In this document: positions 1-14,761 of the stretch, piece by piece
Position numbering within the stretch: position 1 is the stretch's first letter
Layout: each line of letters opens with the position of its first letter
NCBI GenBank assembly: GCA_000004695.1
Contig: CM000152.2
Coordinates: forward strand, 4,960,001 to 5,024,000
Reading direction: 5' to 3'
Length of the DNA: 64,000 bases
Source of the DNA: Dictyostelium discoideum
Taxonomy: Eukaryota
The notes under the pieces: generated by a model
What the model saw: only the letters and a program-made list of their open reading frames with translations
What the model was told of the DNA's origin: nothing
Database searches by the model: none
Position numbers and translations under genes: made by a program

Positions 1-414
1 ATGAAAAAGAGAAATCATCAAAATTATTAAATAATATTTTACCAGATTTTATTATTGAAAATATTGTATATGATTTTGAAAAGAGAGATATTGTAATTCC
101 AGAGCCAGAAGAGTACAAATCATGTTCAATACTTTGTTTTGATATTGTTCAATTTACAAATATGAGTGCAAAATTAGATTCACCATCACGTTTGGTTGAT
201 TTGTTAACCCAAGTATTTAGAGAATTCGATACAGTAGTCTTAAGAAATGGTTGTCAAAAAATTAAAACTGATGGTGATGCTTACATTTGTGCTTGTGGTT
301 TAAAGAGTAAAAAGAAAGCAAAGAAACAAATGCCAAATAGTAAAAGTACTCCACTTTTACAATCAACTTCTTCAACAAGTGTAAATAATATAGATTTAGA
401 TAAAGATAATAAAG

Positions 415-445
<31 letters not shown>

Positions 446-3128
446 TAGTAACAATAATTTTAAAAATAAAAATAATATTATTAATAATAATAATAATAGC
501 AATAGCAACAACAACAATAACAATAACAGCAACAACAACAACATCAATAACAGCGGTAATGATGATGATGATGAAGAAATTGAAGATAGTGAATTAGAAC
601 ATTTTGAAAAATTAATTGATGTTGCAATTGAAATTATGAATTTAGATGTTTTAAAAGAGACTGGTAATACTGAAGGTATTCAAGTACAATTTAGATGTGG
701 TATTGCAGCTGGTTCAGTTTATGGTGGTGTTATTGGTTCTCAAAAGTATCAATTCGATATTTGGGGTGATACAATCGCCAGAAGTCATACCCTCGAACAA
801 TTGGGTCAACCAGGTAAAGTTCATGTTGGCGAAACAATCATGACCCACAAAAATTGGTTGAAAAAGTGGCAATATAATTATAATATCGTTTCAAACTCTG
901 AATGTAAAGATCAAGAACATGATTATGAATTTCATAAAGCTCATGGTGAATGTATAACAAGTTACTTTGTAGATTGGAAAGATGACTATAGAGAGAAAAA
1001 GAAAAAAGATTTATCTTGTGACTTTAGTATTAATAAAGTTTTAAATGCTGAAACAATTGAATCAAAATCAAATAATAATAATTATAATAATAATAATTAT
1101 AATAATAATAATTATAATAATAATTATAATAATAATAATTTAAATAATAATAGTAATAATAATAATAATGAATATGGATCATCGTCTTCATCTTCTTCAG
1201 TATTAGGAGAAGCTGTTACCGAACAAATTGATTGCAACAATACAAATCCACCATTACAACATAAGAAATCACAATCAATTTTAACAAATAATGAAAATGA
1301 TATTGTTTCACCATCACTAACAAGTAATAGTCCAATTTTAGATACAACTGTAAATAATAATAATAATAATAATAATACCAATAATAATAATAAAAATCAA
1401 AATAATATTTATGGAAATAATAATAATAATGAAGAAGATTTTAAAATTAAATCAAAATCAAATAGTTCATTTGAAATTGAAATGTCAAATATTAAGAAAC
1501 CAAAGAGTAGATTTATTGATAGAGTTATGGGAATTTTACATCATGTTAAAATTAGTAATGATAAAATTGATAAAGAGATTATACAAATCGATGAAGATTT
1601 TGTAAAGGTTACAAAATTAAGAAAGTACTTTTTATTTTTTGAGAATTTAACCACCGAGAAATTCTTTCACAAATATGTTATTATCAATAATGTTGTTGAA
1701 ACTAAATTCTTTTTAGTCATTGGTTTAATATTACATTTAATGTTTTATTTAGATGATCACATTATGGATTCTGCACCTTATTTCAATAGTAATGTAATCT
1801 ATTTGGTTATGGGTATTGCATTTTTGGTTTACATTGGTTTATCATTCACTAGAATCTTTAGAACTCCATTGGTTTATCAAATAGCTTTCTTTATTCTCTT
1901 ATGCGCATTTGGTGTTTGTACAGTTTTAGAATTAATTAGATTCCAAAATCCATTAGCAAGATCTTCTTTAACTCGTGTTTGTGCAACTTTATTTTATTTA
2001 AATGTTTTCCATTCTTTAAATTTCTTATCTGTTTTATTTTTAAATCTTTTTATTTTTTGTAAGTATTTATTATATTAAATATAAATATAGAATTTATTTA
2101 TTATTAAAAAAAAAAAGATATTAATATATTTTTTATTATTTTTTTTAGCATTTTTCATAATTTGTAGTATTTTAATTTCACCAACTTTAACAAATCATTT
2201 ATATGAAACCGATTACATTGGATTTGTTATTGTTTTACTTATTCAAATTTGTTCATCCTATGGTATGAAATTGGCAATGAGAAAAGCATGGGTTGTAAAT
2301 TGTAAAATCAATTTTAAGACAATTAGTGTAAATAAAGAGAAAGATAAATTCAATTTCTTATTGAAATCAATTTTCCCACAATCTGCATTAACCAAATTAA
2401 GAGATATGATAGATACTCCAAATATTGAAACCAAAGGTATAGTTTATGTTCAACCACATCAAGATGTTTCAATTATGTTCATTCAAATTGCAGGTTTCCA
2501 AGAATATGATGAACCAAAAGATTTAATTAAGAAATTGAATGATATCTTTTCTTTCTTTGATGGTTTACTTAATCAAAAGTATGGTGGAACCGTCGAAAAG
2601 ATTAAAACCATTGGTAACACTTATATGGCGGTTTCAGGTTTAGATGGTAGTCCATCATTCTTGGAGAAAATGTCTGATTTCGCTTTGGATGTTAAAGCAT
2701 ACACAAACTCTGTTGCAATTTCAAGAGTAGTTAGAATTGGTATTAGTCATGGTCCTTTGGTTGCTGGTTGTATCGGTATCAGTAGAGCAAAGTTTGATGT
2801 TTGGGGTGATACTGCCAATACCGCCTCTAGAATGCAATCCAATGCTCAAGATAATGAAATCATGGTAACTCATAGTGTTTATGAAAGATTGAATAAATTG
2901 TTTTACTTTGATGATGAAAAAGAAATCCTTGTAAAAGGTAAAGGTAAAATGGTAACTCATGTACTTAAAGGTAAAAAAGATCTTGAACAAACAAACAAAT
3001 GGTTCACTAAACCACCCGAAGTTTGGGAAGTTAATGCTACTCCTGCTGGTATTGCCTCACCATTATCTGGAACTCTCTTGGGTGAAATTGGCTCATTCAC
3101 TACTCCAAGATTCCATCTTTCAAGTTAA
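1..3128 (+). CDS. acaA: 12-TM class III adenylyl cyclase, ACA-type (5' end outside window). Exons are approximately <1..2058 and 2149..3128 with a phase-1 intron. C1 catalytic domain at about 3-850, a second 6-TM block at about 1640-2260, C2 catalytic domain at about 2300-2900.
   Basis: Frame 3 is open from nt 3 (EKEKSSKLLNNILPDFIIENIVYDFEKRDIVIPEPEEYKSCSILCFDIVQFTNM...). Domain 1 carries both metal-binding Asp residues (FDIVQFT, KTDGDAY), which makes it C1-like. It is followed by hydrophobic helices, then an intron with GTAAGT at 2059 and TTTTTTAG ending at 2148. Domain 2 lacks the metal Asps but has the adenine-specifying Lys in EKIKTIGNTYM, the Asp in FDVWGDT, and the transition-state Asn/Arg in TANTASRM. 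That is the mammalian-AC/ACA order, not the transposed order reported for GCA. Poly-Asn inserts lie in the C1b region. Assigning it to acaA specifically is inference. Confidence 0.6.
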
Positions 3129-3445
3129 GAAGGCAAAACACAACAAATATATATTTATAAAAATTCAATTGTCAATAATAAAAATAATTTTGATGGAAAA
3201 GTTAATTCTTTTTTAATTGGGAAAAAAAAAAAAAAAAAACTAAAAAACTAAAACAAAAACTAAAAAAAAAAAAAAAAATTGTATTATTAAAAATAAATAA
3301 AAATAAATAAAAATAAATGTTAAAAATAAATACCCTTTTATAAAATAAATTATTATTTTTTAATTAAGTGAAAAAAAAAATAAAAATTATAATAATTTTT
3401 ATTTTTTAATTATTTATTTTTTATTTATTTGATTAAATTAAAAAA

Positions 3446-5153
3446 TTATGGTAATAGTTTTAAAGATTTATTAATTCTATTAAGTTTTTTCATTTTTCTA
3501 CAATTAAAAATCCAAGAAATTATGAAAGCAGTTAGAAAGATTAAAAACATAGAAAGTACCCCACAAAAGTAAGATAAAAGATTTTCCCTAAGTTCGTTCC
3601 ATTGTTTGGCAGTATCACTTGGAGTTTGACATGATTCGGCCAAATCAGTGAATGACGAATCACCATAGAAATTTGTATTTGCTTCATCACAAACAATTAG
3701 TTGGAAATCATTGGTACTTGATGGTGCAAATACAAATTGATTATTGTTGGCAATTACGTCTGATAAGAGAGAATTTATAATCGATGTACCATTTGAAAAA
3801 ATACGATTTGAAAATAAATAAATATTAGACATCTGAGGGCTGAAGAGTCCAACATTACCATGGAGGTTACCTTCTTTGGTGTTAAAATCACTAGAAACAT
3901 ATAAATCAATAGTACTATTTTCAAAGTATGCAAAGGTACTAATTAAGGTTATAACATCCATTATCACACCACTACTATAGTTAAGCTCAACATTGAATTG
4001 ATTTGCATTCAAAAGAGAATTAACAGAATAAATTAGTGATCTTGAACCATCAAATTCTCCAGAAATACTAACTTGGTTTAATGAAACACGACAATTGGAA
4101 AATCTAAGAAAAAAGGAATATATACTTCCATAATATTTTGTATTAATAATTGATACATTATTCATTGTAAAACTACCTGCAGTAATTGAGGCAATTGAAC
4201 TTCCACGATAAATTAAAAAAGAGTTGAAAATTGTATTTGAGATTGTTAAGTCAATTATAGGACCAAAATCATAATTAAGTACAAATGGGACATTATTATT
4301 GACATTGGTGATGTTATTTGAACCAAAATTGCAATTGTTTAAGATGAATGAAATATTGATATTATCATTTGGATATTGTTCACCAAAAAAGTATTGTGTT
4401 ACCATTTTCATTTCTAAATCTTGACTTGATTCATCATTTTTTAACAATTTAGAGGAATCCATTGATAATGGTTTTTTAATTCCATGATTTTTTAAATCAT
4501 TTGATTCACTACTAATTCTTGAATTACCTGAGAGTGAAAAATATGGAGAATAAAGAGATTCACATAAAAAATTTACATTTTCAATATCAACATTTAAAAA
4601 TGCATTTACACCTATATAACCTTGGAAAAAACAACCAGACTCTGAAACATTTAAAGAGTTACATCCAGAGATTGTTACATATCTAATCATAATGTTTGTA
4701 GGAACAATACTAGTTGCTTTATATGGATATTCGACAATGAATATTGGTGATACTGTACCATTTATATTTGGAACTAAAAATTGTACCAAATCATTTGAAT
4801 TTTGGGCACTAATAGAAATATTCAAACCATATAAATTTATTGGATTTTGAGAATAATAATTTCCTGAATCCAATAAAATTTCAATTGAATATTGATTATA
4901 TTCATAGGATTTGATTTGTTGAATTGAATAACCAATTGTTTTTCTAAAAAAAAAAAAAAAAAAAAAAATTAATTAATTATATATCATTACCAATAAATTA
5001 TTATCATTTTTTATTTATATATACTTACCATGGAGATGTAAAACTACCACAAGAGTTATTATCATTACCACTATTGGAAATGTATTTTGAGAATTGTATG
5101 TTACCAAAAGTTGAATTTATTAAAAGGAAAATTAAAAGTATTAAGTATTTCAT
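3446..5153 (-). CDS. Type I membrane/secreted glycoprotein, paralogue A. Exon 1 is 5153..5029 (signal peptide MKYLILLIFLLINSTFG...), exon 2 is 4943..3446. C-terminal TM plus a short basic tail. May be a pseudogene, see findings.
   Basis: Minus-strand ATG at 5153, cleavable signal peptide, donor GTAAGT at 5028, sole acceptor AG at 4945-4944, long ORF 3446..4873, many N-x-S/T sites. The C-terminal hydrophobic helix is followed by WIFNCRKMKKLNRINKSLKLLP. It is colinear with the downstream paralogue B (NLYGLNI...ISG..., FAYFENSTI..., LFSNRI.SNG.SI motifs). Confidence 0.55.
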
Positions 5154-5872
5154 ATTTGTATTTATTGTTTATTTAAAAGAAAAATTGTATAATAATAAAA
5201 AAAAAAAAAAAAATTATTTTATGGTTGTTTTTTTAAACAAAAAAATCTGATTTCGATAAAAATTAATTGAATGGTGATGTGTTTGTTTTGATCTCAAAAA
5301 AAAAAGTAGTTCCAAAAAATTATTATTATTAAAATCTAAATTTTTTTTTTTTTTTTTATAAAATGATATAGTAAAAATCATAATTTGAATATAAAAAAAA
5401 AAAATAATCTTCAACTCAATTATTTATTAACTTTGGTTTTAAATTTTTAAACAAACTTGAATATTCATTTTTATTTATTTTTGTATTTTTTTTTTTATTT
5501 TTAGAATAATGATTTCATTTTTTTTTTTAAAAAATCTTTGTTTTCCAACAAAAATTATGGAAAATATCTGAAATCCAAAAATATAAAAAAAAAATAAAAA
5601 AATAGGTTTAAAAGAAACTGTTTAAATATTTTTTCACTTTTTAAACATTTTTTTTTTCTACTTTTTCAAGTTTTTGATTGTTTTTTAAATAATTTTATAT
5701 TGGTGTTAAAAAAATAAAATGTGCGTAAAAAAAAAAAAAAAAAAAAAATTAAAAATATATAAATAATATAATTTGAATGTACATTTAATTTTTTTTTTTT
5801 TTTTTTTAAAAAAAAAAACATTTATTTTAGTTTTAATTATTATAAATTACTGTACATTTTATTTTTTTTATT

Positions 5873-7936
5873 CTATGCAGAATCATTGATTGATAAAAGT
5901 GATTTTGCTGCTTCTGCAGCTTCTTCTTCTTTTTCCTTTTTTAATTTTTGAATTGCTTTTCTTTTTCTTCTACAACACTTTCCAATAGCTGAAATGGTGA
6001 ACATAGTAACGAAAACCAATACAATGGAGAGAACACCACTTAAATATGATATGATAATTTCAAGTAAGTTGGCGTTAGTATTCCAAAATGATAAAACATT
6101 AATTTTAGCTTGACAAGAATCAGAGTAAGAAGTGAATTGATAATCACCATAGAATCTTGATATTCCATAGTCACATTGGACCAATTGATAAGAGTTTACA
6201 CTGTAAGGTGCATATTGGAATTGATTATTATTTGCTGATACATCTGAAGATTGAGAGTAAACAATTGATGAACCATTGGAACTGATACGATTAGAGAAAA
6301 GGTAAAGCTCAGAATTTACTGGATTGAAAATAGCAATATTACTTGAGAAATAATTTTTAACATCAGATTTTACGGATAAAACGATAGTGCTATTTTCAAA
6401 GTAAGCAAATGATTCTGTTAAAGTGATAAGATGATATGAAATTTCATAGTTTTTCTCTGAAATTATATTGAATTGATTGGCAGTTACAATACAATTAACA
6501 GCTTTGATAAATGGACCACTTATGGAACCGGAAATACTAACTTTGTTAAAAGAGACACGAGCATTAACCAAATAAAAGAGAGAGTTTGTTCCATTTGACA
6601 CAAATGATAAAGAAACAATAGAAACATTATCCATGGTTAAACTACCTCCGTAAAGTTGTACAAGTGGAGCACTATTAAATATATAATTTGTGTTAAAGAT
6701 TGAATTTGTGATTTTTAAATCAATGGTAAAATCAAAATTGGCATTTAAAACAACTGGATATTGATTATTCATTTGATAATTAAATTGACAATTGTTAAAG
6801 GCGAAAGAAATGTTAATGTTGTCATATGGATAAGAGTTTACACCAAATACTTGGTCTACAACTTCCATATAGAGATCTTGATAATAATTGTTATTATCAT
6901 TTTCACTATTATATGAAGATTCTGATGAATATGATTCTGGTGAATATGATTCTGATGAATATGATTCTGATGAATATGATTCTGATGAATATGATCCTGA
7001 TGATTCTGATCCTGATGATTCTGATGAATATGATCCTGATGATTCTGATGAATATGATCCTGATGATTCTGAATTGAATTCAGATGAATATGATTCTGAA
7101 TTTGATTCTGAATTTGATTCAGATGAAGAGTAAGATTCTGAACCATATGGAAGTTGATTTTTTTTTTGAGCAAGTTGATCATAAGAGTTATAGTTGTTGG
7201 AAACTGAAAAATATGAAAAATCGCTATTTGCACATGAAAATATTACATTTTCTGTTTTTACATTTAAAAATAGATTTTGGTAGGAATTAATATTTGATTG
7301 TAAAAGTAAACCATTCCAAGTGTATGATAAATCACAAGTAACAGTAAGATCTCTAAAAACGATATTTGTTGGAATAATATCATAATAATTTGAATGGTCT
7401 ACAGTGAATTGTGCTGTACCTAATGATGATGATGCTAAAAGTTGAACCGATTCTCCTGGGTTGGCTGCTCCAATTGTAATATTTAAACCATATAAATTGG
7501 TTGGTGTTAAAGAATGATGTGTTCCACGACCCAATAAAATTTCAATTGAAAATTGCTCATAAGAATATGATTTGATTTGATTAATTACATATTCAATTGA
7601 TTTACTTTTGTTTTTTTTTTTTTTTTTTGATAAAAAAAATAAAAAAAATAAATAAATAAAAAATTAGTATAAAAAATAATTTTGGTAAAATAAATAAATA
7701 AAAATAAATAAAAAATAAAAAATAAAAATAAAAATAAATAAAAAAAAAAATAAAAAAAAAAATAAAAATAAAAAATAAAAAAATAAAAAAAAAAAATTAA
7801 CTTACCATGGTTCCGTTGATGCACCACAATTTGGTTGATTATAACCATTAAAATCAACATATTTTTGAAATGTGATTTGGCCAAGTGATATATTTACTAT
7901 TGAAAGTAATACTACTAAAAGATTAAATATTTTCAT
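5873..7936 (-). CDS. Type I membrane glycoprotein, paralogue B. Exon 1 is about 7936..7806 (signal peptide MKIFNLLVVLLSIVNISLG), exon 2 is about 7604..5873. Contains an internal Ser/Glu/Tyr repeat insert. C-terminal TM plus a Lys/Glu-rich tail.
   Basis: Signal-peptide exon with donor GTAAGT. The intron is 100% A/T low-complexity sequence. The acceptor gives the in-frame junction ...EP-C-KSIEYVINQIKSYSYEQFSIEILLGRG... The architecture matches paralogue A. A repeat block at 6880-7135 encodes (SESY/SESSGSY)n. Confidence 0.6.
6880..7135 (-). repeat. Coding minisatellite of about 14 copies of an 18-bp unit (gattctgatgaatatgat and variants) inside paralogue B. It encodes a Ser-Glu-Ser-Tyr-rich low-complexity linker.
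   Basis: Direct tandem repetition is visible in the sequence. It produces three overlapping spurious ORFs in the ORF track (6826..7077, 6856..7233, 6888..7133). Confidence 0.8.
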
Positions 7937-8326
7937 ATTTTTGTATAAAAAAAAAAAATTAAACTAAAAAAAAAAAATTTAACTAAAAAAAAAAGATTTA
8001 TAAGGAGGAAAAAAAAATATTAAAAAAATATTAAAAAAATAAATAAAAAAAAAAATTAAAACAATTCTCTCGAAAAAAAAAGTTGGAACTGTTTTTACTT
8101 TTTTCTGAATTTTTGCTATAATATTATTGATGATGATGTGTTTGTTTTGTTTTTTCAATAAAAAAAAAAAATAATTAGAAAAAAAAAAATTAATAATAAT
8201 AAAAAAAAAAATAATTTATTTTGGGATTGATTATTCAAAATGAGTTATTTTTTTATACAATATTAATTTTTTTTATATTCCATAGTTTTTTTAACACCTT
8301 TGCCAAAAATAATCTATATTTAGGGT

Positions 8327-8464: not shown

Positions 8465-10967
8465 TTAAACCTTTTGATATCCATCATGTAAAGATTCAGT
8501 TAAATTAATATCAATTTTAGCACCTTTGATTTGATCACAGTAAGGAGTGTCAGAAAAATAGATTTGATTTATATTCTTTGGTTCCAATTCTTTTTTAATT
8601 CTTTCAGCCAAACCTGGAATACAAGAGAAACCACCAGTGATGACCAATTTTGAGAGATCATCTAAATTATTTTTAAAAGCTGGACGATTTCCCATTTGAT
8701 TGACGAAATTGGTGAGTGTAACGATAATATTTTCAGAGGCTTTATTTTTTTCAGAGAGTTGTGGATTAAAGTAGATTTCTGGAATTTTCGTAATGAATTG
8801 TTTGGAGGTTGGAGTATTTCTTTGTTCATTTTCAAAATCTAGACTAACTCTGACCATTTGATACCATGTAGGTTTTAATGAAAGACCACCTTTAGTAGTA
8901 GAATAGGAGGAATCTTGATAAGAGTAACTTTTAGTATACAAATCTTTATGACATTCAGAATTTTCACCGGCCATTGCAGCTATGCTATTAGCTTCATCAA
9001 TGATATCTTGACCAATCATAGATAAATTGATTGCATCAATTTGTTGACCATCTTGAAAAGCGGCTAAAACAGTGGTTTGACTACCAAACATTAAAACCAA
9101 ACCACTCTTTAATCCATGGGATTGTAATGCTAATAAACCACCATTTTTATAGAGAACCAATTCATTTGGTAGGTATCTTCTAATCTTTGAAAGATAATTA
9201 CCACCATCAGAACCAGCATAATTCAAAGGATTTACAATTAAAACGATTGGGGCATTTATTCTTATTCTTTTGAGTACTCTTTGAACCGAATATTTAATCA
9301 ATTCTTTCAATGGTTCATTCTCGAGGAATCTACCATTTCTAACACCAAAATAAAGGTCAGAGGTGGTTGTATCAGGACCAACTACCCATTTGTATCTATC
9401 CATTGACGACATAACATAGTGAGGTTGATATTCTTGACGTTTACCAACTCTTTGAACAAAAGAAAAAGCATAATTTATAGGTTCTGAGGAACTACAAAGT
9501 TTAACTCTCTCTGAGCCTATATCTAGGATCACGATTTGATTCTTTTTATAAAAGGTGTGAATATTTTGATAGGTTAACATCCATCTCTTGACATCCATTT
9601 TGGTTGGTTTTGATTTACTAGATTTAACAATTGATTCGTGGATTGAATTAACTTTGAAATTCAATACGTAATTCTTTTCAAAATTGAATGCCTCCATTGA
9701 GAAATCACGAATATAAATTCTTCTCCAAAGTGAATCCTTTGCCACGATGGTTGCAAAGTACTTACTGGTGACCCTTAATCTACCCAAATCAATTGGTTTC
9801 AATAGCACTAAAATATCGAATAGTTGCACCTCTGGTATGGTTGATAGTGTCACCAATGGTTTCTTTCTCAATGGTGATGTCACTGAAATATTCATATTCT
9901 TTATCTTTTGAGTGATTGCATCAATTGATGGATAACCCGTCAATAACATTTGAGCCTTTACATATAACGAAATTGCAGACTCAAGATCTTTCTCATCCTT
10001 TTCCTTTGAATCGGCTTTAAAGAATGTTGTCTTTGCCAATTCCATCTCTGCCTTCTCTTGAGCTGAAATCTCTTCATCCAAATTCTTATCTATACGAAGG
10101 AACATCATATCGACACGAACAATATATTTGACACCCTCTAAAACTTCTCCACCATCATGGAGAGTATCATGATTGAAAATGATTGCACTACCACTCTCTG
10201 GAACTACTGTGTCCTCCAATACATGTTTATCCAATAACAATGGGTTCTCAGAGGTAAAGAAATTGGTATTACCACCTTTAAATCCATCGTTTAAATAAAT
10301 TTGAATGGTATAAATTGAACGTCTATCTGGGTTGTCTGCAAATACTGCATCATAATGTGCCTTGAATCTACTACCTGGTAAATATTTGCTAAATGTAAAA
10401 CAATTATCAATACCAATTGGAATCCAAACTCCCTTTTGATCGAAACCATAAGGTCTAACACCTTCCAAATCACTCTCTCTAAAAATTGCTTCTAATCTTT
10501 CCCATAAAATATCTGATAATTTATCACTCTTTCCTAAATATCTTAAATTATTACGATATCCAGTTGGAAATTCTTTTTCAATTGAAACATAACCTTTTCT
10601 TTCACTTTCTTCAATAAAATGTCTTTATTTATTTTATTTTTTTTAAAAAATATATATATACAAATAAAATAAAATAAAATAAAATAAAAAATAAAAAATT
10701 AATTGATTTTTTTTCTTTTTTAAAAAAAATTTTATAAAAAATAAAAATAAAAATAAAGAAATAAATTAGAATCACTTACAAACATTCTTCTTTTGTTAAA
10801 ACATTTGTAACTTTAAAACCATTTGAGGTTGATAATTTTAAATCTGTTCTTTTTAATAATTCAGGTTTAAAATTTTCATTAGTAATGTTTTCATTAAAGC
10901 TTAATAAATCACTACCTGTTATAACCCTATTTTCTGGACATGTTGTTGTTGCACCTTCTTCTGCCAT
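8465..10967 (-). CDS. Multidomain protein: N-terminal 2OG-Fe(II) oxygenase (prolyl-4-hydroxylase-like) domain, central F-box, C-terminal actin-related (Arp-like) domain. Exon 1 is about 10967..10780, exon 2 is about 10622..8465.
   Basis: Exon 1 reads MAEEGATTTCPENRVITGSDLLSFNENITNENFKPELLKRTDLKLSTSNGFKVTNVLTKEEC then GTAAGT. Exon 2 continues in phase (L)HFIEESERKGYVSIEKEFPTGYRNN...GVRPYGFDQKGVWIPIGIDNCFTFSKYLPGSRFKAHYDAVF...IIFNHDTLHDGGEV, which gives an HxD...H iron triad. The F-box-like segment is LFDILVLLKPIDLGRLRVTSKYFATIVAKDSLWRRIY. The actin fold signatures are IVILDIGSERVKLC, LIVNPLNYAGSDGGN, GLVLMFGSQTTVLAAFQDG and LVITGGFSCIPGLAERIKKEL. Confidence 0.55.
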
Positions 10968-11938: not shown

Positions 11939-13927
11939 TTATTTTACTTTTGTTGCCATTGGTACTATATCAATTGGTAAATTAAATCTAAAACCTTTTA
12001 AATTTATAAGTTTAACAGTTGGTGGTATTGAACCTTTAGTGAAAATTTGACAAATATCATAGATTGATATTTCTTGAACAGATTCAGGTATTATACCTTT
12101 TGTTATTGTATGAGAGAAACCATCGGTAAACATTAAATATTTAATAGTATTTGGTATTGAACCAACGGTTAGAGGATGACGTATATCACCCAAATACAAA
12201 GTATCAACCGAGGAAGGTATGATATCAGTATTGATATGATGAGTGAACCCATTTGCAAATATTAATTTCCTAACGACACTTTCATTGATTGAACCTTTTT
12301 GTAAGGGTTGAATGATATCGAAAAAGTATAATCTTTCCAAAGCAACAGGGAAATTGAAACCATTGTTAAATACATCGGGAGTGATAGTGAAATTGAAACC
12401 ATTATTAAACACCAACTCTTTTATTGTTGAGGGTATGGACCTACGAGTGAGTGGTTTCTTTATTGAACCTATATAAAGTGTTTGTACGGAACGTGGTATT
12501 TTACTAGCTTTGATAATATGTGAAAATCCATTATCAAAGTATAACTCTTGAATGGTATTTGGTATTGATTCTTTAGTCAATGGTTGTACTATATCGTTGA
12601 TGTATAATGATTGAACCGTTGGTGGTATAACATCACTACAAATTGGATGTTGATAACCTTGATCGAAAAACAACTCTTTTACACCTCTACCCACTGACCC
12701 CCTAATTAATGGTTCCTTTACATTATGTAACATCAATCTACTAATCGATGGTGGCATAATATCATTTGTAATTAAAAAACTATATCCATGTGATAAACTT
12801 AACATTGTCACCGTTGGAGGTATTGATTCCTCTGTCAATGGTTCAACAATATCACAAACATACATCTTTACAACTGATAATGGTATTATCTCTTTTTTAA
12901 TCTTTTGATTAAATCCACTACAAAATATAATTTCTTTTAATTTATTATTCTTAAATTCATTATTTGTGTTATTATTATTTTTATTATTATTATTATTATT
13001 ATTGTTGTTGTTATTATTGTTATTGGTATTAATTGATGATTTAATTAATAAAGATTGATTTGTTAAAGGTTGTTCTAATTTACCTAAAAATAATTTAACA
13101 ACAGTTGGTGGTATCATTGTTTCACCGATTATTTGATGAGAGAAACCATTGAAAATATACAAATTTAATAAATTACCATTATGTGGTAATGATAATTCAT
13201 CCAATGGCTCAACTATATTACCAATTGAAATGGATGTAATTGTTGATGGAATTGTATCGGCTCTAATAGTATGATTAAAATCATCATAAAATATAATCTC
13301 TTTAATTGTTGAAGGTATTGAATCTGATGTTAATGGTTTTTCAATTGAACCAATAAATAATTTTTCAACTGTACATGGTATAAATCCTTTACTAATTTCA
13401 ATATTAAATCCATCATATAAATATAAATTCTTTACACTTGATGATATTTTAATTAAATTATTATTATCTTCTTCCTCCTCTTCTTCTTTTTCTTTTTCTT
13501 TTTCAATATTTTCAATATTTTCAATATTATTATTATTATTATTATTATTATTCTTTTTATTTTTTTTATTTTTTGATAATTTTGTAATTGCTAAATTTAT
13601 AATACCATCTGGAATTGGTTCGCCGTGATTTAAATAAAATTCTTTATCTTTACAACATTCTAAAACTATTTTTTTATCAATCATTAAATGACTATTATTA
13701 TTACTTTTGAATGGTTGAGAATCAACAATGAAATTGGTTTTAATTAGTTCAAATGCTGTATCCAAAATATCTTGATTAATTATTAAATTACTTTCTTTAA
13801 AATGTTCATATCTTTTTAATTTCCTTTCAACTAATCTATTGGTTTTATCACTATCCTTTAATAATGTTATATATTTATTTTGTTGATCTTTTTGTTTATT
13901 AATTATTTCAACTGATGTTTGTTGAAT

Positions 13928-13986
<59 letters not shown>

Positions 13987-14761
13987 GCTGTTGTTCTGAA
14001 TTATTACTATTATTATTTATAGCACCAGATGAAGATGATAATGTAGTAGAGGGAGTAGATGTTGTTGTTGTTGTTGTTGTTGTTGCTGTTGCTGTTGTTG
14101 TTGTTAATGGTTTTAAAATATTATCTAAATCATATAAATTTATATTGTCATTATGTTTATTTATTAAATTTGTAATTAATTGATTATCTGTATCAATTTC
14201 AGATTTAATTTGTAGAAAGGTTTCTTCATTTTCTGATAGTTTAGTTTCTAAAGTTCTCTTTATATTGAGTTCTAAAATTGATAAAATGTTATGTAGTTGT
14301 TTGAATTTTGATGTTAATGTTGTTAGATTGACTTTATGTCTATCTTGAATTTGTTGAAAACAATCCTCCACTGCGTTCATTATCGCTTTATCACTCTCTC
14401 TATATCCTACCAATGATGGAAATTGTTCTTTAAATTTGTCCAATATCTTTTTAGATTTCTCTAGATTCAATTCACTGAATTTATGTCCATTATGCGTTGA
14501 TATTATACATTTAACACAAACTGGACTAATACATGAATCACATATATACACTATATCATTATCTCTATGATATGAACATTTTGAATCTTCAATCTCTTCT
14601 ATATAATTATCTTCTCCACCACTATCAACTCCCTCGCCACCATTTTCTTCATCTTTAAAATAATTATTAAATGTATTATTATTATTACTAATATTATTGT
14701 TATTATAACAATTATTATTATTATTATTATATATTGAGTTATTTATTCTTGAAGGAACCAT
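11939..14761 (-). CDS. B-box zinc finger, coiled-coil and FNIP-repeat protein (940 aa).
   Basis: Single ORF. The B-box-like Cys/His cluster is CSYHRDNDIVYICDSCISPVCVKCIISTHNGHKFSEL. It is followed by a coiled-coil region with poly-Q and poly-T/N tracts. After that come about 20 FNIP repeats (…FNNGFN…L.FG..FNQPL…IP.S(V/I)..L.FG). FNIP repeats are a Dictyostelium-specific family. Confidence 0.7.

Follow-up and report, generated by a model that had tools for sequence, protein, structure and literature searches.

Two adjacent genes on the minus strand of Dictyostelium discoideum AX4 chromosome 3 raise the question of how they are related, what kind of protein they encode and whether both still work. 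They lie near the left end of a 64,000-nucleotide stretch of DNA (the window; contig CM000152.2, positions 4,960,001 to 5,024,000; 23.9% G+C), next to a cyclase gene that is presumably acaA. The first, here called gene B, is DDB_G0281781 (7936..5873, minus strand), and its spliced product matches the database protein P0001 exactly over 620 aa. The second, gene A, is DDB_G0281817 (5153..3446, minus strand), and its exon 2 matches P0005. An earlier inspection of the letters alone (the original prediction) had placed a pair of homologous minus-strand genes at these positions, and both were found. Our overall account, which we consider probable, is that A and B are tandem paralogues of a beta-helix family located next to acaA, that a repeat expanded in B, that AX4 carries a null allele of A and that B serves as a surface module.

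Tandem duplicates with a shared architecture

Global alignment of the two proteins gave 239 identical residues in 526 columns (45%, against the roughly 40% first estimated), and the Smith-Waterman score of 923 compares with 83 ± 14 for 100 shuffles. BLASTP recovered the similarity in both the N-terminal half (E = 9e-32) and the C-terminal half (E = 7.6e-78), and the blocks NLYGLNI, FAYFENSTI and LFSNRI.SNG.SI, singled out in the original prediction, were all present in both proteins in the alignment. The DNA comparison of A with B that had been proposed as a dot-plot yielded collinear blastn diagonals at 64–76% identity. Both genes start with a hydrophobic N-terminus, followed by a phase-2 GT..AG intron directly after ...CCA TG and by one long exon. 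In both, this intron splits the Cys codon of a CG..PC motif. A and B are similar over their full length, lie next to each other in the same orientation and share the intron position, which identifies them as tandem gene duplicates. No further copies were found in the window by tblastn.

In gene B, the signal peptide and the CG..P motif come from exon 1 (7806..7936), whose last two bases, TG, begin the codon of Cys44. The intron (7605..7805; 201 nt, phase 2, GT..AG, T-rich) leads into exon 2 (5873..7604), which codes for the predicted beta-helix ectodomain, the repeat loop, a transmembrane helix (5981..6058) and a 36-aa basic/acidic tail up to a TAG stop. Gene A is built in the same way. Its ancestral exon 1 (5029..5153) encodes a signal peptide, ends in TG and is orthologous to exon 1 of P0004, P0003 and P0006; the intron (4944..5028; 85 nt, phase 2, GT..AG) is followed by exon 2 (3446..4943), which contains a non-repetitive loop in the predicted beta-helix ectodomain (4403..4522) and a transmembrane helix (3506..3580) with a 19-aa basic tail. 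The first base of this exon, an A at 4943, completes an in-frame TGA, while the other 498 codons are open. The layout that had been proposed (signal-peptide exon, phase-2 intron, long exon, transmembrane helix) thus held for both genes, but the tail of B, basic and then acidic over its 36 aa, is not simply short and basic.

Each protein exhibited a single Kyte-Doolittle peak above 2.2 (residues 496–522 in A, 555–580 in B) followed by CRKMKK or CCRRKRK, and AlphaFold2 models contained helices at the transmembrane sites of both. The ectodomains carry 8–12 N-x-S/T sequons. With a signal peptide, one C-terminal transmembrane helix and a positively charged cytoplasmic side found computationally, A and B are predicted to be type I single-pass membrane proteins, and their products would be located at the cell surface. 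We picture each protein as a signal peptide, an N-terminal CG-x5-PC cap, a right-handed beta-helix rich in Asn ladders and sequons, a transmembrane helix and a basic cytoplasmic tail, with a disordered Ser-rich loop that would be inserted between the N-terminal and C-terminal coils.

History of the pair

The pair was compared with the orthologous loci of a second D. discoideum isolate (L001, GCA_054859355.1), D. cf. discoideum (L002) and D. citrinum (L004), each of which keeps the order of a gene for an oxygenase/F-box/actin-like protein, B, A and acaA. D. purpureum possesses a single homologue, DICPUDRAFT_98013 (P0007, 550 aa), which is about 26% identical and lies in an unrelated neighbourhood, but has its Cys codon split by the same phase-2 intron. 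In a neighbour-joining tree of 475 ungapped columns, the A and B clades were each recovered in 200/200 bootstraps, with D. purpureum outside, so that the local duplication put forward originally stands. Since A and B form separate clades and D. purpureum falls outside them, the tandem duplication next to acaA would be older than the split of D. citrinum and D. discoideum and, provided that no copy was lost in D. purpureum, younger than the divergence of that species.

The duplication probably included regulatory sequence as well. Directly after an oligo-T run upstream of both paralogues we found a block, CAAAACAAACACATCAYC, that is kept in the A orthologues of three genomes and in the B orthologues of two. 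In the window it reads CAAAACAAACACATCACC at 5273..5290 on the minus strand, after a T-run and 120–137 nt before the ATG of gene A, where it is common to gene B and to the A orthologues in L001, L002 and L004. Upstream of gene B it reads CAAAACAAACACATCATC (8132..8149, minus strand), again after a T-run and about 200 nt before the ATG. Probably the block marks the region of transcription start, or it is a cis-element that both copies took over when the gene duplicated.

When 1.84 billion representative proteins were searched exhaustively with a profile, only three clusters scored at E < 1e-30. The few weak matches (E ~1e-4) were limited to the N-terminal cap motif; among them, the metagenomic protein P0010, which carries a Pfam Beta_helix domain, matched in this motif with E ~4e-4 and provides the only sequence link of the family to Beta_helix. 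Word-indexed protein searches retrieved only 5–6 relatives; beyond these, the profile search contributed just the homologue from D. purpureum and the weak N-terminal-motif matches. As judged from these searches, the family is narrow and restricted to the D. discoideum/D. citrinum/D. purpureum group. It also evolves fairly fast: ratios of nonsynonymous to synonymous substitution rates (dN/dS) were 0.3–0.7 for A and 0.4–0.5 for B, with 1.1 for a short N-terminal segment of B in the comparison of AX4 with L002, while the comparison genes gave 0.02–0.07 (second cyclase domain) and 0.14–0.24 (oxygenase/F-box gene). Outside AX4, gene A showed a dN/dS of 0.29–0.35, corresponding to purifying selection.

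The isolate L001 differed from AX4 by a synonymous divergence (dS) of about 0.05–0.11 across all genes compared, which is substantial for one named species. Its B orthologue furthermore carries a 1-bp deletion just past the transmembrane helix (L001 ~5150–5170, corresponding to window ~5966–5975), which changes TGTTGTAG to TGTTG-AG. The deletion creates ..GKC* and would take off the whole cytoplasmic tail; the deposited L001 model (P0002, 608 aa) masks it by skipping the transmembrane and basic segment. The allele may be truly truncated, or the assembly may be at fault.

A compound Ser/Glu/Tyr repeat in gene B

As originally predicted, a coding Ser/Glu/Tyr tandem repeat is present in B only; the corresponding loop of A is non-repetitive. 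Its boundaries, first given as 6880–7135, had to be moved to 6914..7144 (minus strand). Tandem Repeats Finder (TRF) and parsing of the units showed an imperfect tract of 77 aa with about 14 SES-type units of 12–24 bp, flanked by the conserved sequences QLPY and YNSEN. It reads G SESYSS SESN SESN SESYS SEFN SESSGSYS SESSGSYS SESSG SESSGSYS SESYS SESYS SESYS PESYS SESS, that is, a mixture of units of 4, 5, 6 or 8 residues such as SESN, SESYS, SESSG and SESSGSYS. The proposed structure of about 14 copies of an 18-bp unit was thus right in copy number and overall span, but not in period: TRF reported periods of 15 (9.7 copies, 80% matches), 24, 39 and 12, with 78–86% matches overall, and no 18-bp period in the AX4 repeat, which is therefore not a minisatellite of uniform units. 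Units of 18 bp (SESYSP) occur only in D. citrinum, where they alternate with SESYS.

The tract measures 77 aa in AX4, 89 aa in L001, 54 aa in D. cf. discoideum and 83 aa in D. citrinum, confirming the suspected variation between strains. All length differences in the DNA alignment fall within it. The repeat is not a new, lineage-specific acquisition, as had been assumed, since it is common to all B orthologues back to D. citrinum and represents an expansion within an older Ser-rich loop. At this site the loop is Ser-rich and non-conserved in every family member: A has about 40 non-repetitive residues (..SRISSESNDLKNHG..) and D. purpureum has poly-Ser (..GESYSNSEDLSLSSSSSSSSS..). AlphaFold models of B and of an A orthologue display the loop as a disordered excursion (pLDDT, the predicted local distance difference test score, of 22–35) between two well-predicted beta-strand blocks; in the B model, pLDDT stays below 35 at residues 182–305.

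Within the tract, 39 of 44 Ser codons are TCA, compared with 29 of 67 elsewhere in gene B. This codon bias indicates that the repeat grew by copying of DNA units rather than by selection for composition. The loop of copy B may accordingly have expanded into its imperfect SES(Y/N/SG) repeat by replication slippage or unequal exchange, and its length would keep changing between strains. The acidic, Ser-rich product might act as a flexible spacer, possibly modified by glycosylation or phosphorylation.

It is, however, a serious possibility, in our estimate a little short of even, that the repeat has no function: a surface loop would simply tolerate neutral low-complexity sequence prone to slippage, of which the D. 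discoideum genome has thousands of other coding examples. Between the four genomes, the tract varies freely in length and in the units it contains, the codon homogeneity points to copying at the DNA level, and both paralogue A and D. purpureum do without a SESY repeat. Passages in Scala et al. 2012 (PMC3460934) and Kucukyildirim et al. 2020 (PMC7466956) moreover describe coding repeats in D. discoideum as pervasive, unusually polymorphic and prone to slippage. On the other hand, the tract has stayed in frame and rich in Ser, Glu and Tyr since before the D. citrinum split, and the Ser-rich loop at this site in every family member suggests that some spacer property has been retained.

A predicted beta-helix without a sequence signature

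The ectodomains of A and B are predicted to adopt a right-handed parallel beta-helix (pectin lyase-like), in which stacked coils of three strands each can be superposed on solved members of the fold. The model of an intact A orthologue reached a pLDDT of 73.7 and a predicted template modelling score (pTM) of 0.73, and Foldseek assigned it to the same fold class, with the disordered loop at the same site. In addition, the conserved residues are mostly Asn, Phe, Ser and Gly, in motifs such as NNC.F, ANQFN and NNNQF that are typical of beta-helix ladders.

Several results weigh against this assignment. The alignments behind the structure models were shallow (6–7 sequences), the mean pLDDT of the B model was only 61, and the Foldseek template modelling scores for the A model were low (0.2–0.35). 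Pfam returned no family for A and B at E <= 1 and none for P0006 (the D. citrinum A orthologue) or P0007 at E <= 0.01, and the family profile gave 0 matches among PDB sequences at E <= 10. Across the Pfam scans a single match was obtained, to LapA_dom (E = 0.011); it lies on the transmembrane/tail segment, below the curated threshold, and was discarded. Likewise, no sequence match was seen to the curated beta-helix families (Beta_helix PF13229, NosD, Pectate_lyase, Glyco_hydro_28, Pectinesterase). The beta-helix that the original prediction suggested looking for with hidden Markov models was therefore recovered at the level of fold, by predicted structure, but not as a sequence match to Pfam Beta_helix or to the polymorphic membrane protein (PMP) family. 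On the basis of the models, A and B would be members of a beta-helix family that has no name, is confined to this lineage and can be recognised only from its structure.

What such an ectodomain does may be narrowed down from its conserved residues. Just two charged residues are invariant across the mature proteins, one Glu (FENS) and one Asp (GD). The family contained neither the motifs of glycoside hydrolase family 28 (GH28; NTD/DD/G[DH]G/RIK) nor a conserved catalytic acid/base cluster nor Ca-binding Asp/Glu. With so few invariant charged residues and neither GH28 nor PMP motifs present, binding or adhesion seems a more likely task than catalysis. We regard it as doubtful that the ectodomain is an enzyme anchored in the membrane, whether a lyase, a hydrolase or an epimerase, with polysaccharides of bacteria or of the slime sheath as substrate, although most structural neighbours are enzymes of this kind; the absence of known motifs cannot by itself decide against an enzymatic role, which might rely on a novel active site.

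A link to development comes from published work. Jaiswal and Kimmel (PMC6637605) selected DDB_G0281781, an unclassified gene whose expression rises about 3-fold upon starvation and also upon rapamycin treatment. Their strain GWDI_477_H6, with an insertion in this gene, stays as single cells and does not aggregate, and CAR1 is low or not induced. The paper makes no mention of complementation of GWDI_477_H6, and its supplementary files mention neither the A nor the B gene ID. The aggregation phenotype is thus that of one uncomplemented insertion mutant, which tells against a firm assignment; the connection of B with aggregation is provisional, as no complementation is mentioned. A polar effect on acaA is not an obvious explanation because the insertion lies downstream of the acaA 3′ end, with gene A in between. 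This mutant suggests a developmental role for B.

The split codon of gene A in AX4

According to the original prediction, exon 1 ends with Pro followed by Trp or Cys in a pair of identical exon architecture. The shared phase-2 intron position bore this out, but the codon split by the intron reads TG|T (Cys44) in B and TG|A (stop) in AX4 gene A; Trp is obtained only if the intron is read through. With a nonsense codon at its exon junction, gene A is not equivalent to gene B in AX4. The junction is ...CCATG|gtaagt...ttag|AAAAACA in AX4 versus ...tag|TAAAACA in L001, L002 and L004, where the codon specifies Cys (..SPCKTI..) and the annotated A proteins are 537–538 aa long with a signal peptide. 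Signal peptide and CG..PC cap are conserved in all eight orthologues/paralogues and in D. purpureum. Replacement of T by A in the first base of exon 2 would have converted the conserved Cys42 codon into TGA, and the AX4 A protein should end after 41 residues. Given this disabling mutation relative to the intact orthologues in the three other genomes, the A allele of AX4 is most likely a recent null.

Some observations speak against a null allele. We looked for further decay of AX4 gene A and found none, its 498 codons being open, and there was no signal of relaxed selection (15 nonsynonymous to 9 synonymous changes on the AX4 branch, 13 to 9 on the L001 sister branch). As the gene is otherwise intact and shows no nonsynonymous excess, the lesion would be either very recent or a reference error. 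The reference sequence is the sole source of the AX4 stop codon; in the assembly collection, the exon-2 open reading frame products of A and B were not on record as independent AX-lineage contigs. Finally, a cryptic in-frame acceptor at 4809/4808 would restore a Cys in A. We judged its use unlikely, for 45 conserved residues, NLYGLNI among them, would be lost, and the orthologues do not support it.

A reference error, with TGT (Cys) as the real codon and both paralogues intact, is in our opinion unlikely. It would account for a single-base difference beside a long T homopolymer in a gene that is intact elsewhere and has no nonsynonymous excess on the AX4 branch. However, the difference is a substitution and not a homopolymer-length error, and both chromosome 3 versions in the collection give the same annotated product.

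We attach a smaller chance still to gene A being functional in AX4 as publicly annotated. The database model P0005 (502 aa, starting MFKKKTIGYS) avoids the TGA by means of an 11-nt exon, ATGTTTAAAAA, at 5638..5648 (minus strand), which emerged from comparison of P0005 with the window sequence; starting there, at 5648..5638, the model is spliced over a 694-nt intron to 4943. Although this intron obeys GT..AG and keeps the frame, and exon 2 is fully open, the model drops the conserved signal peptide and CG..PC cap, and in three genomes the A orthologues begin instead with the ancestral exon 1 and have Cys at the junction. The 694-nt intron would moreover engulf the conserved promoter block and exon 1 of gene A, and it is far above the typical Dictyostelium intron length. 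A sequon-rich beta-helix ectodomain without a signal peptide would also be topologically implausible. Because its product lacks a signal peptide, the 11-nt exon is probably a gene-prediction artefact or workaround.

That the TGA is read as selenocysteine, giving a Sec/Cys pair between paralogues and strains, is hardly credible: the in-frame UGA aligns exactly with a Cys conserved in every homologue and D. discoideum has selenoprotein machinery, but the Cys is a structural cap residue rather than part of a redox motif, closely related isolates use Cys, and we rejected this reading for want of a selenocysteine insertion sequence (Rfam gave no match to such an element or to anything else in 3100..5900 at E <= 10, nor did the whole window give one at gathering thresholds).

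We thus retain the null allele as the preferred explanation. The annotation of DDB_G0281817 probably needs revision, either to a pseudogene/null allele or by sequence correction.

Implications for the laboratory strain

B would be the working copy in AX4, where it most likely acts as a non-enzymatic cell-surface binding or adhesion/receptor module that cells need to enter aggregation. The reference model of DDB_G0281817 is probably wrong and the laboratory strain may be without one paralogue, which bears on how the DDB_G0281781 mutant is read. If AX4 lacks A, the strong phenotype of the B mutant could, speculatively, reflect loss of the sole working paralogue. Taken further, A and B might constitute a partly redundant, fast-evolving beta-helix surface receptor or adhesin module, adjacent to acaA, that controls whether cells enter aggregation, with a natural null of A in AX4 and its relatives; we think this improbable. 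Were it true, the A null in the AX4 background would explain the complete aggregation block upon loss of B alone, knocking out either gene alone would have mild effects in wild isolates that keep A and B intact, and variation of the repeat and the ectodomain could contribute to strain-specific social behaviour.

More modestly, a fold and an architecture can now be proposed for two 'hypothetical' Dictyostelium genes, one of them with a reported aggregation-null phenotype. The repeat of B is one more length-variable coding repeat of a type common in the D. discoideum genome and is usable as a strain marker. With respect to the original prediction, the picture has changed in the stop at the splice junction of A, in the compound nature of the repeat and the age of the loop that contains it, and in the assignment to a beta-helix family visible only by structure. 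The pair, beta-helix surface proteins with a Ser-rich linker derived from tandem duplication, is an ordinary feature and no new kind of biological system.

Neighbouring genes

The cyclase gene at 162..3128 (plus strand) encodes two class III cyclase catalytic domains and ends 318 bp from the stop of gene A, tail to tail. In related genomes it encodes a protein of 1380–1410 aa, a length from which we take it to be adenylyl cyclase A (acaA). The adjacency of an aggregation-relevant surface gene to acaA is possibly a coincidence, yet it bears on the reading of insertion mutants in the region. On the other side of the pair, the gene at 8465..10468 (minus strand) encodes a 2-oxoglutarate-Fe(II) (2OG-Fe(II)) oxygenase, an F-box and an actin-like C-terminus, which is an unusual domain combination. 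D. cf. discoideum has two tandem copies of this gene (766 and 779 aa; L002 1–2838), and only one copy each is listed within the stretches fetched for L001 and L004. D. citrinum shows an extra gene call of 148 aa between the oxygenase/F-box gene and B. Further along the window, 11939–14761 (minus strand) encodes a protein with a B-box zinc finger and FNIP repeats.

Comparison with known systems

The predicted fold invites comparison with beta-helix surface adhesins, namely the autotransporter passengers Vag8 of Bordetella and pertactin, PfbA of S. pneumoniae and the binding region of the serine-rich repeat protein (SRRP) of L. reuteri. There is no detectable sequence relationship with A and B, which moreover would be held by a eukaryotic type I membrane anchor in place of an autotransporter barrel or LPXTG anchor. 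Unlike the flanking stalk of the bacterial adhesins, the Ser-rich tract of A and B is an internal loop within the predicted helix. From beta-helix enzymes, such as the alginate/chondroitin lyases of polysaccharide lyase family 6 (PL6), V. cholerae RbmB, GH28 polygalacturonases and phage tailspike depolymerases, A and B differ by having no Pfam match, no catalytic acid/base cluster and no GH28 motifs. With chlamydial PMPs they share the predicted beta-helical surface protein and the arrangement as a tandem paralogue pair, but they have no Pfam match to Chlam_PMP (PF02415), no GGA[ILV] motif and only 4–5 chance F..N matches. The repeat of B, in turn, resembles the polymorphic coding repeats of D. 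discoideum, as passages in PMC3460934 and PMC7466956 portray them, in being in-frame, AT-rich, codon-homogeneous, located in a disordered region and variable in length among isolates; in contrast to a homopolymer triplet run, it is a compound repeat built from mixed units of 12–24 bp.

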